This document shows, piece after piece, positions 10,874-17,628 of a DNA stretch of 25,084 nucleotides (position 1 is the first letter of the stretch; every line of letters starts with the position of its first letter). The stretch lies in assembly GCA_028282805.1 (NCBI GenBank), contig JANQHD010000012.1:1-25084 (forward strand). The letters are read 5' to 3'. Position numbers and translations under genes: made by a program. Source of the stretch: Phycisphaeraceae bacterium (GTDB lineage Bacteria; Planctomycetota; Phycisphaerae; Phycisphaerales; Zrk34). The notes under the pieces are model-generated. The model worked only from the letters and a program-made list of their open reading frames with translations, did no database searches and was not told the DNA's origin.

Positions 10874-10945
10874 TGCGGCCGACAGGAATCGAACCTGCTC
10901 CTCCGCCGTGGCGGGGCGGCGCTCTGCCGGTTGAGCTTCGACCGC
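10874..10945 (-). tRNA. tRNA-Gly (anticodon GCC), atypical C33
   Basis: Acceptor GCGGTCG/CGGCCGC, D-arm GCTC/GAGC, anticodon arm CCGCC-CCGCCAC-GGCGG. Position 33 is C instead of the near-universal U. T-loop TTCGATT. Confidence 0.65.
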
Positions 10946-10952
10946 TTTGAAT

Positions 10953-10997
10953 TGACCGCCGCCCGCCCCCGGAAATCCGGAAGGTCAGGCGGCGGTC
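10953..10997 (-). terminator. GC-rich hairpin (GACCGCCGCC ... GGCGGCGGTC) downstream of the SPFH gene
   Basis: A 10-bp perfect inverted repeat with an inner CCGG/CCGG hairpin lies between the SPFH stop (11008) and tRNA-Gly. No clear U-tract follows on the transcribed strand, so it is either an intrinsic-like terminator or an RNA processing structure. Confidence 0.4.
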
Positions 10998-11007
10998 GGG
11001 TCAGGGG

Positions 11008-12165
11008 TTAGTCCTCATCGTGGTCCTCGGAAAACTCGCGGAGCGCGCAGCCCTGCTCGTCGGCCGTCAGGCTGCGCACCTGCTCGACGAGGTCGCCCTT
11101 GCCGAGCACGAACGTCGCCTTGACGCCCTTGAGCACGTCGCCGATCGCCTCCAGCTCGCGCATGCGCGCCAGCTGCGGGTTCTCGGCCAGCAGCTTGGCG
11201 GTGTTCGCCTGGCTGCGCGCCGCGGCGGTGTCCTCGCGACGGCGGATGAGGTTGGCCTCGGCCTGCTTCTGGGCGAGGATCACCTCGTTGAGGATCGCCT
11301 TCATCTCGCCGGGCAGGATGATGTCCCGGAGGCCGATGCTGCGGACGACCACGCCGAACTCCTCGGCGCGCGACGCCAGGGCGTTTCGCACCTCGTTGCC
11401 GACCTGGTCCTTGTCGGTCAGCAGCTTGTCGAGCGGGCGTGTGCCGACCGCCTCACGCAGCGCCAGCTGCGCCTCGCGGTACAGCGCCTGCGCGTGGTCC
11501 GCCACGACCGTCACGGCCTTGACCGGGTCGGTGACCTGGTAAGTCGCCACGAGGTTCACACGCAGCGTGACCTTGTCGGCGGTCATGATCTCCTGGCCGG
11601 CCACGTCGGCGACCTGCTCACGCAGGTCGATGGTCTTCCAAGTGATCTTGCCCGTGCCGATCCAGTACACGTGCAGGCCCGGGCCGAGCTGCTCGATCAG
11701 CTCACCCTTACGGAACAGCAGCACGCGCTCGTGCGACTCGACGCGGATGCCGTCGAGCACCTGCGAGCCGCCGGGGAAGTTGAGCACGGCCTCGAGCTTG
11801 GGGTGGTCGAACTTGAAGTCGTTGACGTTGAACTTCTCGATCTCGATCTTGGCCGGCTTGTTCCAGAACGCGTGGCGGCCGGTCTTGAGGACCCAGCCGA
11901 GTCGGCCGTCCTTCCAGACCAGGGCACGCTCGTCGTCGTTGAGCTCCACGACGGTCAGGTGCTCGGCGACGCCGGGCTCGGCGACGAGCGTGTCGAGCAT
12001 CTTATGCTCGAACTTGCTGGATGTGCGGTCGACGATCTCGACGCGGTCGTGACCCAACCAGATGCGCGGCAGCCGGTAGGCGCCGCTGGTGAGCAGTTGC
12101 TTGAAGTCGCCGTGGCGGAACCACAGGCCGACCTCGTGCTTACGGATACGCACTTTGCTGAACAT
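11008..12165 (-). CDS. SPFH / band-7 (slipin/stomatin-like) family protein
   Basis: Contains the SPFH core (MTADKVTLRVNLVATYQVTDPVKA ... IGLRDIILPGEMKAILNEVILAQKQAEANLIRRREDTAAARSQ) and a coiled-coil C-terminal region. The start is the ATG at 12165 with an AAGGAG RBS 9 nt upstream. The longer track ORF overlaps a tRNA and is rejected. Confidence 0.75.
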   Translation of the reverse strand: MFSKVRIRKHEVGLWFRHGDFKQLLTSGAYRLPRIWLGHDRVEIVDRTSSKFEHKMLDTLVAEPGVAEHLTVVELNDDERALVWKDGRLGWVLKTGRHAFWNKPAKIEIEKFNVNDFKFDHPKLEAVLNFPGGSQVLDGIRVESHERVLLFRKGELIEQLGPGLHVYWIGTGKITWKTIDLREQVADVAGQEIMTADKVTLRVNLVATYQVTDPVKAVTVVADHAQALYREAQLALREAVGTRPLDKLLTDKDQVGNEVRNALASRAEEFGVVVRSIGLRDIILPGEMKAILNEVILAQKQAEANLIRRREDTAAARSQANTAKLLAENPQLARMRELEAIGDVLKGVKATFVLGKGDLVEQVRSLTADEQGCALREFSEDHDED

Positions 12166-12509
12166 GGTCCAGGCTCCTTGAAAACAAGGTGAAAACGATT
12201 CACCGCCGCGAACGCCACGACGAATGGTGATTTGATAAAAGCGAGTCACGGGAGGCCCGCGTGGCCCGCGCCCCGAGTTCACAGCGGAGCCGGCTTGAGC
12301 GGCATCAGGGAACGCGCTGGCGTCGCACGGCTGCGCGCCCCGAAGCGCCCACCCCCGATCGGGCTGACCTTCGAAGGCGCGGGGCCGGGTGACCGCCACG
12401 TTGTGACGCCGCGGTATCCGCCGGGCTGCGGGCTGTGTCGTCGGTGTCGCACGAGGCGACCGGCGCGGGCGGCGGGGTGGTCCCGCGACCCGTGTGGTGG
12501 CGTTGCTCA

Positions 12510-12555
12510 CGCCGGGAGGGGGATTTGAACCCCGAGGGTTTTCAACCCTGTGCCA
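12510..12555 (-). pseudogene. tRNA 3'-half fragment (anticodon arm GGG-TTGAAAA-CCC through T-arm GGGG-TTCAAAT-CCCC and the acceptor 3' strand), Phe-GAA-like
   Basis: The reverse complement reads TGGCACAGGGTTGAAAACCCTCGGGGTTCAAATCCCCCTCCCGGCG. The anticodon and T stem-loops and the acceptor 3' strand are present, but there is no 5' half or D-arm. It differs from the intact tRNA-Phe at 17072-17143. Confidence 0.45.
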
Positions 12556-12556
12556 T

Positions 12557-12634
12557 GGTGGATGTGGACCGGCTTCGAAACCGGCGACCTTCCGATTGAC
12601 CATCGGATGCTCTAACCAACTGAGCTACCACACA
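12557..12634 (-). pseudogene. Degenerate tRNA-Asp-like gene (anticodon GUC) with a genomically encoded ACCA tail
   Basis: The reverse complement is TGTGTGG-TA-GCTC-AGTTGGTTA-GAGC-A-TCCGA-TGGTCAA-TCGGA-AGGTC-GCCGG-TTTCGAAG-CCGGT-CCACATC-C-ACCA. The D-arm and anticodon stem are canonical. The defects are G33, an 8-nt T-loop and a 1-72 mismatch. A canonical tRNA-Asp exists at 16722-16795. Confidence 0.45.
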
Positions 12635-12740
12635 CCTATGCGCTTTTCGAATCCGTGACACGGAACACGCCTGACCCGATCGCGGGGCGAGGGCGACGCG
12701 CCGTCGGCGTACGCATGGTGTTGATCCCATATGAAGGAAA

Positions 12741-12812
12741 CACGCGCGGCAGGATTCGAACCCGCACCGGACGGTTTTGGAGACCGCCGCTCTACCGTTG
12801 AGCTACGCGCGT
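12741..12812 (-). tRNA. tRNA-Trp (anticodon CCA)
   Basis: Acceptor ACGCGCG/CGCGCGT with A1-U72, as in bacterial Trp. Anticodon arm GCGGT-CTCCAAA-ACCGT, T-loop TTCGAAT. Confidence 0.8.
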
Positions 12813-12820
12813 ATGTTGAA

Positions 12821-12892
12821 CTGCACCGGCTGGGGTCGAACCAGCAACCGTCTCCTTAACAGGGAGCCGCACTACCGTTGTGCTACGGTGCA
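12821..12892 (-). tRNA. tRNA-Asn (anticodon GUU)
   Basis: Acceptor TGCACCG/CGGTGCA, anticodon loop CTGTTAA, T-arm GCTGG-TTCGACC-CCAGC. It is 8 nt from tRNA-Trp. Confidence 0.75.
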
Positions 12893-12905
12893 AGTGTGAT
12901 GAAAG

Positions 12906-17010: not shown

Positions 17011-17020
17011 CTTGCATCCA

Positions 17021-17045
17021 TCCGTTCTTCACTTGTCAAAGACCG
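17021..17045 (-). promoter_or_regulatory. Copy 1 of the conserved 17-nt motif TTGACAAGT[G/A]AAGAACG (minus-strand sense); it contains TTGACA
   Basis: The minus-strand reading is cggtcTTTGACAAGTGAAGAACGga. A near-identical copy lies at 17451-17475. This copy is about 85 nt upstream of tRNA-Ile and might be a -35 element or a processing signal. Confidence 0.35.
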
Positions 17046-17071
17046 CTGCGCCGCGCGTGCGACGCGAACAA

Positions 17072-17143
17072 TGGCTGGTCCAGGAGTCGAACCTGGGTCT
17101 CCCGCTTTTCAGGCGGGCGCTTTACCGGCTGAGCCAACCAGCC
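17072..17143 (-). tRNA. tRNA-Phe (anticodon GAA)
   Basis: Acceptor GGCTGGT/ACCAGCC (perfect), anticodon arm CCCGC-CTGAAAA-GCGGG, T-arm CCAGG-TTCGACT-CCTGG, A73. The D-stem has one mismatch. Confidence 0.7.
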
Positions 17144-17153
17144 CTTGTGTCAA

Positions 17154-17226
17154 TCGCCGCGGTGGGAATCGAACCCACGCACACCCCCACGTGACGGGGG
17201 CGCTCTGGCCGCTGAGCTACGCGGCA
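17154..17226 (-). tRNA. tRNA-Val (anticodon CAC)
   Basis: Acceptor TGCCGCG/CGCGGCG, anticodon arm CCCCC-GTCACGT-GGGGG, T-arm GTGGG-TTCGATT-CCCAC. It is 10 nt from tRNA-Phe. Confidence 0.7.
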
Positions 17227-17303
17227 TAAGTTTGCGCACCGATCGCGCACCCGGTCGGTCGTCCGTCTGGCCTACGGATCAAAGCGCGTTCATAAGTTTT
17301 CAA

Positions 17304-17376
17304 TGGCGGCGGCAGGATTCGAACCTGCGGTCTTCGGGTCATGAACCCGACGAGGACTCCGCTCCTCTACGCCGCG
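17304..17376 (-). tRNA. Initiator-type tRNA-fMet (anticodon CAU) with a C1.C72 mismatch
   Basis: Acceptor CGCGGCG/CGCCGCC, so 1-72 is unpaired as in initiators. D-stem GAGG/CCTC gives A11:U24. Three G-C pairs close the anticodon stem (TCGGG-TTCATGA-CCCGA). T-loop TTCGAAT. Confidence 0.7.
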
Positions 17377-17382
17377 TCGCAA

Positions 17383-17454
17383 TCGCGATGGCTGGATTTG
17401 AACCAGCAACCTTTCCCGTATGAAGGGCCTGCTCTGCCGTTGAGCTACATCGCG
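17383..17454 (-). tRNA. tRNA-Met or Ile2 (anticodon CAU), elongator-type, weak anticodon stem
   Basis: Acceptor CGCGATG/CATCGCG (paired 1-72), D-arm GCTC-AACGGCA-GAGC, anticodon loop TTCATAC with only 3 G-C pairs in the stem (two G.A oppositions), T-arm GCTGG-TTCAAAT-CCAGC. It is 6 nt from fMet. Confidence 0.6.
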
Positions 17455-17475
17455 TTCTTTACTTGTCAATGGTCG
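17451..17475 (-). promoter_or_regulatory. Copy 2 of the 17-nt motif TTGACAAGT[G/A]AAGAACG, filling the spacer between tRNA-Val-GAC and tRNA-Met
   Basis: The minus-strand reading is cgaccaTTGACAAGTAAAGAACGcg. It is only about 10 nt upstream of the tRNA-Met 5' end, so it is unlikely to be a -35 for that tRNA. It is more likely a shared processing or recognition element. Confidence 0.35.
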
Positions 17476-17543
17476 CGGCTGGATTCGAACCAGCGACTTC
17501 CTGCGCGTCATGCAGGCGATCTACCGGGCTGATCTACGCGACC
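17470..17543 (-). tRNA. tRNA-Val (anticodon GAC)
   Basis: Acceptor GGTCGCG/CGCGACC, D-arm GATC-AGCCCGGTA-GATC, anticodon arm CCTGC-ATGACGC-GCAGG, T-arm GCTGG-TTCGAAT-CCAGC. Confidence 0.75.
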
Positions 17544-17556
17544 GTGTTTTTATCAA

Positions 17557-17628
17557 TGGCCTTGACGGGACTCGAACCCGCGGCTCCGCCTTGAAGGGGC
17601 GGCATGCTGCCAATTGCACCACAAGGCC
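17557..17628 (-). tRNA. tRNA-Glu (anticodon UUC), atypical C33; first tRNA of the array in the transcription direction
   Basis: Acceptor GGCCTTG/CAAGGCC, D-arm GTGC-AATTGGCA-GCAT, anticodon arm CCGCC-CCTTCAA-GGCGG with C33. T-arm GCGGG-TTCGAGT-CCCGT. Confidence 0.65.

Follow-up and report, generated by a model that had tools for sequence, protein, structure and literature searches.

A tRNA array with an embedded RNA ligase

The DNA analyzed here (the window) comprises positions 1 to 25,084 of contig JANQHD010000012.1 in GenBank assembly GCA_028282805.1, assigned to a Phycisphaeraceae bacterium, and contains an island of ~7.8 kb (~10180-17950) built around a tRNA array in which several genes lack the uridine at position 33 (U33) of the anticodon loop. 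ARAGORN detected 30 array tRNA genes, all on the minus strand between 10413 and 17628, that together cover all 20 amino acids at a density of 4.2 genes per kb (30 genes in 7.2 kb). An encoded CCA is absent from the array tRNAs, and in a listing of the spacers nearly every gene was followed by TT(G). The island lies in a bacterial chromosome. Its flanks carry ordinary chromosomal metabolic and regulatory genes, including those encoding two GH2 glycosidases, KDPG aldolase, an ECF sigma factor with its FecR partner, a PEP-CTERM protein, and a sulfatase, and a megablast search of the array against 50,697 phage records returned zero matches. A phage origin was rejected on both counts, and the array tRNAs are unlike, in this respect, the phage-encoded tRNAs to which a preliminary description of this DNA, made from its letters, compared them.

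Three protein-coding genes on the minus strand lie within the array, and a fourth lies at the distal end of the island. The first encodes the RNA ligase RtcB (13261-14493, with a possible alternative start at 14511), which matched PF01139 with 224.6 bits over model positions 16 to 424 of 426. RtcB seals RNA ends carrying a 3'-phosphate or a 2',3'-cyclic phosphate to 5'-OH ends. The motifs GYDIxCG, GSGNH, GSRGLGH, HN, and HGAGR align with those of Pyrococcus horikoshii RtcB, and by this alignment the enzyme is catalytically intact; the RNA-repair ligase that the preliminary description placed next to the loop-variant tRNAs is thus present and sits inside the array. The second gene (15322-15930) encodes an HNH endonuclease of the homing-endonuclease type (Pfam HNH_5 and HNH_4), which is 30% identical (E = 7e-23) to the HNH protein encoded next to the trn operon of Anabaena. 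The third (11008-12165) encodes an SPFH/Band 7 membrane protein of the slipin/HflK-like type (PF01145) and has AAGGAG upstream of its ATG. The gene at the distal end (10180-10410, minus strand) encodes a small helix-turn-helix protein of the MerR/BldC type with 76 residues (Pfam MerR and HTH_17; NCBIfam BldC).

Relatives of the island were found by a protein search with RtcB, using one genome per species. Five metagenome-assembled genomes of Planctomycetota/Phycisphaeraceae (L001 to L005) encode an RtcB that is 79 to 86% identical to that of the window and an HNH protein that is 67 to 74% identical, and they have in common with the window the gene order tRNAs, HNH, tRNAs, RtcB, tRNAs, SPFH, tRNAs. 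The SPFH gene is syntenic in L001 to L003, and the MerR/BldC-type gene is kept in L002 and L003. The flanks of these five islands are unrelated to those of the window. This combination of a shared gene order and unrelated flanks leads us to infer that the island was acquired horizontally. Arrays with RtcB and a homologous HNH gene were also present in Acidobacteriota (L059 and L078) and on viral-database contigs (L088, L122, L125, and L148). HNH matches on plasmids of Acaryochloris, Methylobacterium, and Rhodococcus had no tRNA array nearby in any of the three cases.

By its gene content and synteny, the island is a horizontally moving member of the known class of long tRNA arrays (L-arrays). 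It contains at least 20 tRNA genes in the same orientation at a density of at least 2 per kb, linked to an HNH gene and an RNA-repair gene. L-arrays have been described as supernumerary, horizontally spread tRNA sets, reported from Planctomycetes and other phyla, that have links to HNH endonucleases and rtcB (PMC8421152). The array also falls under the operational definition used for tRNA array units of Acidithiobacillus, Mycobacterium, and Firmicutes, which requires at least 20 tRNA genes at a density of at least 2 per kb and an association with mobile elements (PMC4758250, PMC5966550). No description of an array with embedded RtcB in Planctomycetota and Acidobacteriota was found in the literature searched.

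Five array tRNAs lack U33

The literature regards elongator tRNAs as having an invariant U33; cited exceptions are C33 in many eukaryotic initiator tRNA-Met species and G33 in Candida tRNA-Ser(CAG) (PMC5041475). Both the loop sequences and ARAGORN showed U33 to be absent from 5 of the 30 array genes, with C33 in three and G33 in two. These are the same five that the preliminary description had named, though the number of array tRNAs with U33 is 25 and not the 16 that it counted. The C33 genes are tRNA-Gly(GCC) (10874-10945, loop CCGCCAC, C33 at 10913), in which all stems are paired; tRNA-Pro(CGG) (15019-15091, loop UCCGGAU, C33 at 15059), which has C1-G72 and A73, folds into a cloverleaf at minimum energy, and carries A37 in place of the usual G37; and tRNA-Glu(UUC) (17557-17628, loop CCUUCAA, C33 at 17596), with U11-A24 and a 4-nt variable loop. 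The G33 genes are an array-type tRNA-His(GUG) (15100-15173, loop CGGUGAU, G33 at 15140), which combines a Cys-like body with A8, G1-C72, C73, and a T at position -1, and an Asp-like tRNA-like gene (12556-12635, loop UGGUCAA, G33 at 12601), for which the ARAGORN structure includes a T loop of 8 nt and an acceptor stem of 8 pairs with a mismatch. Glu and His are each represented in the array by non-U33 genes only. The good cloverleaves initially ascribed to all five genes hold for Gly, Pro, Glu, and His and fail for the Asp-like gene; the identity elements ascribed to Pro (C1-G72 and A73) and His (C73) are present, whereas the G-1 of His is not encoded.

Alignments to the tRNA covariance model RF00005, which are independent of ARAGORN, gave the same register for Pro, His, Glu, and Gly, each variant base falling at the consensus U33 column with a high posterior probability; the register of the Asp-like gene is that of ARAGORN. 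All five genes scored above the gathering score of 29 in the covariance-model check that had been proposed for them (Glu, 62.4 bits; Pro, 60.7; Gly, 58.9; His, 39.5; Asp-like, 39.4), and the U33 genes of the array scored 43.5 to 70 bits. The His gene gave no match in filtered scans of the whole window with Rfam, and its score comes from a narrow search with RF00005, on the strength of which the possibility that it is not a tRNA was rejected. An alternative register that restores U33, which the preliminary description considered fatal to its claim, does not exist, as judged from the sequence of each loop, the folds of minimum energy, and alignment to Rfam. On the 5' side of the anticodon, the Gly and His loops are devoid of U, the sole U in the Pro loop is position 32, and a shift of the Glu register breaks the stem.

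Unusual bases were also seen at position 37. G37, methylated to m1G, is usual in bacterial tRNAs of the Pro-CGG, Leu-CAG, and Arg-CCG kind, and in the window Leu-CAG (16183-16256) and Arg-CCG (16338-16409) have A37, as does Pro-CGG. Ala-GGC (15962-16035) has U37, a pyrimidine.

The variant genes retain tRNA structure and specificity

In the Gly, Pro, Glu, and His genes, 17 of 17 pairs of the acceptor, anticodon, and T stems are intact, and differences from orthologs are either compensatory or one-sided with pairing kept, such that zero pairs are broken; the four genes also have the conserved T-loop bases T54, T55, C56, and A58. Compensatory changes include C-G to U-A at Glu 50-64, C-G to G-C at His 27-43, and A-U to U-A at His 29-41, and pair 1-72 of His covaries, being G-C in the window and U-A in L001. 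The window and L002 both have C33 in Gly-GCC (with an identical loop), in Glu-UUC (as C32-C33), and in the Pro slot, where the L002 ortholog is a Pro-UGG with the same loop flanks as the Pro-CGG of the window; the Gly-GCC ortholog in L003 has U33. Identity elements are retained in Gly (G1-C72, C2-G71, and G3-C70), Pro (C1-G72 and A73), and Glu (U11-A24 and the 4-nt variable loop). In the six arrays from Planctomycetota, 97 to 100% of genes retain T54, T55, C56, and A58, and 141 of 161 retain U33. Between orthologs, anticodon position 35 differed in 0 of 305 pairs and position 36 rarely (0.023). Intact, covarying stems and conserved anticodon positions 35 and 36 indicate that selection maintains the folding of these tRNAs and holds their specificity fixed, and on this comparative evidence Gly-GCC, Pro-CGG, and Glu-UUC most likely function as tRNAs, with loops that are altered.

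The two G33 genes differ from each other in this respect. The Asp-like gene is probably a degenerate copy, judging from its structure and from its slot, which in other arrays holds different anticodons (ATG, GAA, or one that is not determinable). The slot, between the Trp tRNA and the SPFH gene, is always occupied by one or two unusual tRNA-like genes whose anticodons are unstable (GUC, AUG, GAA, or indeterminate; window, 12556-12635; L001, 11039; L002, 11919; L003, 12084 and 12157), several of which are without U33. The His gene is an otherwise conserved member of a His family that is widespread and specific to arrays and that is characterized by a Cys-like body, G1-C72, and C73. None of its ~33 orthologs has C32-G33, most having U32-U33 and a few U32-C33, which marks C32-G33 as a recent one-off change. 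The D and T arms of the array His (15100-15173) are common to housekeeping tRNA-Cys genes of soil bacteria; when both arms of the window gene were used to scan metagenomes, 89 Cys and 28 His genes were retrieved (metagenome loci L168 to L287). This suggests either a remodeled Cys-type body or convergence.

Loss of U33 recurs in related arrays

Among 599 array tRNAs, 59 were non-U33, comprising 57 with C33 and 2 with G33; A33 never occurred, and the only G33 genes were the two in the window. RtcB-linked arrays with at least 13 genes accounted for 43 of 332 (41 C and 2 G), and 17 further metagenomic arrays accounted for 16 of 267, all C; these counts across arrays are not phylogenetically independent. 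Within the Planctomycetota, the number of non-U33 genes was 5 of 30 in the window, 1 of 26 in L001, 7 of 34 in L002, 4 of 32 in L003, 1 of 20 in L004, and 2 of 19 in L005. The Acidobacteriota arrays L059 and L078 had 1 of 21 and 7 of 37, and the viral-database arrays L122 and L125 had 6 of 32 and 7 of 26, respectively. A Mycobacterium plasmid array contained a Tyr-GUA with C33. Non-U33 genes, such as an Asn-GUU with the loop CCGUUAA, were also observed in small clusters of one to four tRNA genes on viral-database contigs (L146, L147, L150, and L159), which extends the trait beyond long arrays.

Outside the arrays, U33 was present in 16 of 16 tRNAs encoded at 80 related genomic loci and in all 89 of the housekeeping tRNA-Cys genes from the metagenome scan. 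In the six Planctomycetota arrays, U33 was lost in 20 of 161 cases, compared with 12 of 636 for T54, T55, C56, and A58 combined (Fisher's exact test, p = 1e-7), and the excess of non-U33 over chance is clear. The trait was rejected as a general property of L-arrays, since all 24 of the tRNAs detected in the Anabaena array (26 are reported) have U33, and it is therefore not obligatory for the class. It was likewise rejected as a by-product of G+C content; the highest fraction, 27% in L125, occurs at a locus with 47% G+C.

The distribution among isoacceptors is uneven. No non-U33 gene occurred among those for Met (0 of 20), Lys-UUU, Lys-CUU, Gln-UUG, Arg-ACG, or Trp, and C33, at ~10% of genes, was found mainly in tRNAs with G34 and in those of four-codon families. 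C33 is repeated in the same isoacceptors of unrelated arrays, namely, Gly-GCC, Asn-GUU, Cys-GCA, Thr-GGU, Leu-GAG, and His. In the literature searched, no paper on tRNA arrays or clusters that also mentions U33 was found. Nor was there an earlier description in that literature of recurrent C33 in L-arrays, in genes that by sequence comparison are under structural and anticodon constraint.

Evolution of the anticodon loop

Site-by-site comparison of orthologs placed position 33 between the conserved and the free positions of the molecule. The pairwise ortholog difference was 0.111 at position 33, 0.305 at position 32, 0.161 at position 37, and 0.430 at position 38, compared with 0.02 or less at positions 53 to 56, 58, and 61 and 0.30 to 0.38 at the free unpaired sites 26, 44, 45, and 47. 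Ortholog pairs were then binned by stem divergence, and positions 32, 33, 37, and 38 were pooled and compared with the other unpaired, nonuniversal sites. The values for the flanks and for these unconstrained sites in the four divergence bins were 0.15 versus 0.18, 0.21 versus 0.24, 0.29 versus 0.26, and 0.35 versus 0.31, respectively. Accelerated change at the four flanking positions was not found in aggregate, and no bin differed significantly. Position 33 alone changed at about one-third of the rate of unconstrained sites.

Housekeeping genes from the metagenome scan served as a control. In 23 distinct housekeeping tRNA-Cys genes with a stem divergence of 0.23 to 0.27, the loop CUGCAAA and U73 were invariant, whereas 23 distinct array His tRNAs with a stem divergence of 0.41 to 0.50 had a loop-flank divergence of 0.39 and ten flank combinations. 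The contrast between the invariant Cys loop and the variable array His flanks indicates that the anticodon flanks of array tRNAs are released from the housekeeping constraint. In some close pairs, changes were concentrated in the loop; the His genes of the window and L005 differ at 4 of 4 flank positions and at one stem position, and the Pro genes of the window and L003 show a similar concentration.

Other features of the island and its relatives

A conserved open reading frame of 131 amino acids (14642-15037) lies on the plus strand, opposite to the array, between Gly-UCC and Pro-CGG. It is annotated as a gene on a 1.8-kb contig in a public database and has a 42% match in L005, and it had zero family matches in Pfam, NCBIfam, and PADLOC. 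Attachment-site repeats were not found at the island ends; the repeat families detected were tRNA genes or spacer hairpins, and repeat-family analysis showed no periodic repeat unit in the array. Promoter and terminator scans of the island yielded nothing above shuffled controls. Several of the longer spacers (10575-10674, 12979-13042, 16257-16337, 16489-16553, and 16956-17071) are long near-perfect hairpins, some composed of GATCG-like repeats, that are candidate processing or regulatory sites between tRNA genes.

Bacterial Leu tRNAs normally have a long variable arm. The array Leu tRNAs (window, 16183-16256; Leu-CAG, Leu-CAA, and Leu-GAG in L001 to L005; and L162 of Anabaena) are short, at 74 to 78 nt, and are without this arm; they have in common a distinctive D arm (CCCC...GGGG) and A73, and in related arrays only Leu-UAA has the long arm. 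Orthologous slots with near-identical tRNA bodies have switched anticodons between arrays, including Lys-CUU versus Arg-CCU, Pro-AGG or Pro-UGG versus His-GUG, Thr-UGU versus Thr-AGU, and Val-CAC versus Val-UAC (examples of switched slots are window 13122-13195 versus L003 11317-11390, window 15176-15248 versus L002 9667-9738, and window 16632-16705 versus L001 6267-6344).

In arrays L122 (11639-13108) and L125 (8532-9941), a gene for a TROVE/Ro60-like protein with a VWA domain adjoins RtcB, a neighborhood that recalls the Rsr-Y RNA-RtcB modules of enterobacteria. The window resembles those modules and the RtcB/RtcA operons in having RtcB as a sealing enzyme for cleaved tRNA, but its RtcB is embedded among tRNA genes, and no RtcA, RtcR, or Ro60 gene was found in the window.

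A proposed spare tRNA set with tolerated loop changes

The trn operon of Anabaena PCC 7120 is the one L-array that has been studied experimentally. There, TrcR represses a single regulon consisting of the tRNA array, rtcB, the HNH gene all8564, and the slipin gene alr0740 (PMC10272220, Table 1), and the array is induced by translational stress, with 23 of 26 array tRNAs charged in vivo (PMC8421152; PMC10272220). Like the window array, which is known from sequence, it consists of dozens of supernumerary tRNA genes on one strand, is horizontally spread, has a homologous linked HNH gene and a functional link to rtcB and slipin, and encodes short Leu tRNAs without the long arm. The two systems differ in that rtcB, HNH, and slipin are scattered and coregulated in Anabaena but physically inside the array in the window, in that the regulator is a ribbon-helix-helix protein (TrcR) in Anabaena and MerR/BldC-like in the window, and in that U33 is kept in every detected Anabaena array tRNA but lacking from five genes here.

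The explanation that we put forward, and in which our confidence is evenly balanced, is that the island is a spare tRNA set with its own repair ligase, that selection on decoding is weak, and that C33 is tolerated. The complete set of 30 tRNAs, together with RtcB, the HNH endonuclease, the slipin/SPFH protein, and the small regulator, would probably be silent during normal growth, by analogy with the Anabaena trn operon, and would be activated by damage to translation or to the tRNA pool, whereupon RtcB would reseal broken tRNAs. We infer such expression, charging, and a role in stress, as well as weak selection as the cause of the loop variation. Selection would maintain folding, charging, and specificity, as reflected in the stems, the T loop, anticodon positions 35 and 36, and the identity elements, while selection for decoding efficiency would be weak in a set that is rarely used. 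Weak selection on decoding would in turn let the flanks (positions 32, 33, 37, and 38) evolve as fast as unconstrained sites do. A U33-to-C change may be the mildest of these and may persist in ~10% of genes for that reason, being tolerated in tRNAs whose anticodon depends little on the loop or on enzymes that modify position 34, and it may be fixed in a few families.

Several observations weigh against this explanation. G34 is enriched among non-U33 genes (27 of 43 versus 78 of 289; p = 7e-6, from counts that are not phylogenetically independent), so that C33 is not distributed as pure drift would predict. Short Leu-GAG tRNAs have C33 in 6 of 6 copies, and their loop reads UCGAGAG without change in L002, in L003, and in the highly diverged viral-database array L088, although the L088 stems are completely different; this conservation looks like selection for C33, at least in that family. 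C33 is present in ~10% of genes, compared with ~70% for C at position 32, which implies that U33 is still favored and that C33 is mildly harmful or context specific. Finally, the presence of a ligase among the array genes suggests breakage of tRNAs as the stress that matters, and this would fit a role for the loops in evading nucleases.

Alternative explanations

According to that reading, which the preliminary description had raised for anticodon nucleases and which is possible but on balance unlikely, the loop variants were selected as poor substrates for enzymes that read the loop, either anticodon nucleases, which could come from toxin-antitoxin systems, bacteriocins, contact-dependent toxins, or defence systems, or modification enzymes such as tRNA-guanine transglycosylase (TGT), and the array and RtcB form a kit that replaces and repairs cleaved tRNAs. 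The intact RtcB inside the array, the specificity of U33 loss relative to other universal positions, the repetition of C33 in the same isoacceptors of unrelated arrays, the Leu-GAG loop conserved across deep divergence, and the loop-concentrated changes in the His and Pro pairs would all be expected from it. There are also precedents. Loop mutations in phage tRNAs have been predicted to block VapC and similar nucleases, so that the protective role to which the preliminary description appealed is a published hypothesis (PMC10264068). Colicin E5 cleaves a minihelix substrate drastically less when its U33 is replaced by A or G (PMC1635277), and G33 reduces gamma-toxin cleavage by about 85% (PMC2275089). 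TGT needs U33-G34-U35; its recognition of the U-G-U sequence is published (PMC1950534 and its reference 45). However, C33, the common variant, has no effect on gamma-toxin cleavage (PMC2275089), and both G33 changes are singletons with no counterpart among the ~33 His orthologs or in any other array. In aggregate the flanks change no faster than unconstrained sites, and position 33 is slower, at about a third of their rate. The detected Anabaena array tRNAs have U33 throughout, and under stress some of them are cleaved while the housekeeping tRNAs remain uncut (PMC8421152). Defence-system models applied to the island matched generic HNH and helix-turn-helix domains only, with zero nuclease or defence genes. 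An extended form of this reading, which we consider doubtful, holds that RtcB-linked mobile arrays of Planctomycetota, Acidobacteriota, and some viruses systematically keep functional elongator tRNAs with C33, and rarely G33, through selection against U33-dependent loop enzymes (anticodon nucleases and TGT), and that these tRNAs and the ligase form a cleavage-proof spare translation kit.

The preliminary description had also raised the possibility that the five genes are decaying, nonfunctional paralogs, or tRNA pseudogenes, in a redundant array. For the set as a whole this is highly improbable, though it is plausible for the Asp-like gene, with its 8-nt T loop, mismatched acceptor stem, score of 39.4 bits, G33, and unstable slot anticodon. 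The His gene offers some further grounds (39.5 bits, A8, an unencoded G-1, and the unique C32-G33), as do other odd loops in the window, such as Ala-GGC with U37, and 3 of the 26 Anabaena array genes, which were undetectable, are regarded as pseudogenes (PMC8421152). Decay is rejected for Gly, Pro, Glu, and His by their intact stem pairs, none of which is broken by any ortholog difference. Gly, Pro, and Glu moreover score 59 to 62 bits, within the range of the U33 genes, with compensatory substitutions and their identity elements kept; anticodon position 35 never and position 36 rarely differs among orthologs; C33 is common to orthologs in genomes whose RtcB is only 79% identical; and coverage of Glu and His in the 20-amino-acid set depends on these genes alone. 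A nontranslational role, in which the variants would soak up nucleases as decoys and C33 or G33 would keep them off the ribosome, is again very unlikely. U33 does contribute to binding of tRNA to the ribosome (stated in PMC1635277), and a sponge role for array tRNAs was proposed by the authors of the Anabaena study because the array and not the housekeeping tRNAs are cleaved (PMC8421152). Conserved anticodon positions 35 and 36 and synthetase identity elements point instead to charging, and a true decoy would be expected to mimic the loop of its target and not to diverge from it.

Implications for U33 and for mobile tRNA arrays

The loop-mutant tRNAs of mycobacteriophage cluster C1 and of coliphages, predicted to resist host anticodon nucleases, are similar to those of the window in forming large mobile sets with noncanonical loops next to the anticodon, sometimes linked to an RNA ligase, but the window island is chromosomal and without phage genes, and position 33 is not singled out in the part of the phage study available (PMC10264068). 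The C33 and G33 tRNAs of eukaryotes are functional, which shows that the U-turn nucleotide is not absolutely required (PMC5041475); those are single, special-purpose tRNAs, whereas the variants in the window are several bacterial elongators of different specificities.

The fusion of the tRNA set with RtcB, HNH, and slipin provides support from an independent phylum for the functional link inferred from coregulation in Anabaena. The array C33 tRNAs would offer natural substrates for tests of the nuclease-protection idea, which so far has been argued mainly from sequence patterns in phages. Because TGT recognizes U-G-U, the G33 His and Asp-like tRNAs, and the C33 tRNAs of other arrays with GUN anticodons, would be expected to escape queuosine insertion. 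If the doubtful case of a selected, cleavage-proof kit were true, bacterial elongator tRNAs would for the first time be seen to break the universal U33 rule systematically. C33 occurs in about 1 in 10 tRNAs of a widespread class of mobile arrays, with the cloverleaf intact and coevolving and the anticodon fixed, and if these tRNAs are charged and used, U33 would be dispensable for a sizeable natural set of bacterial tRNAs, mostly those with G34 or from four-codon families.

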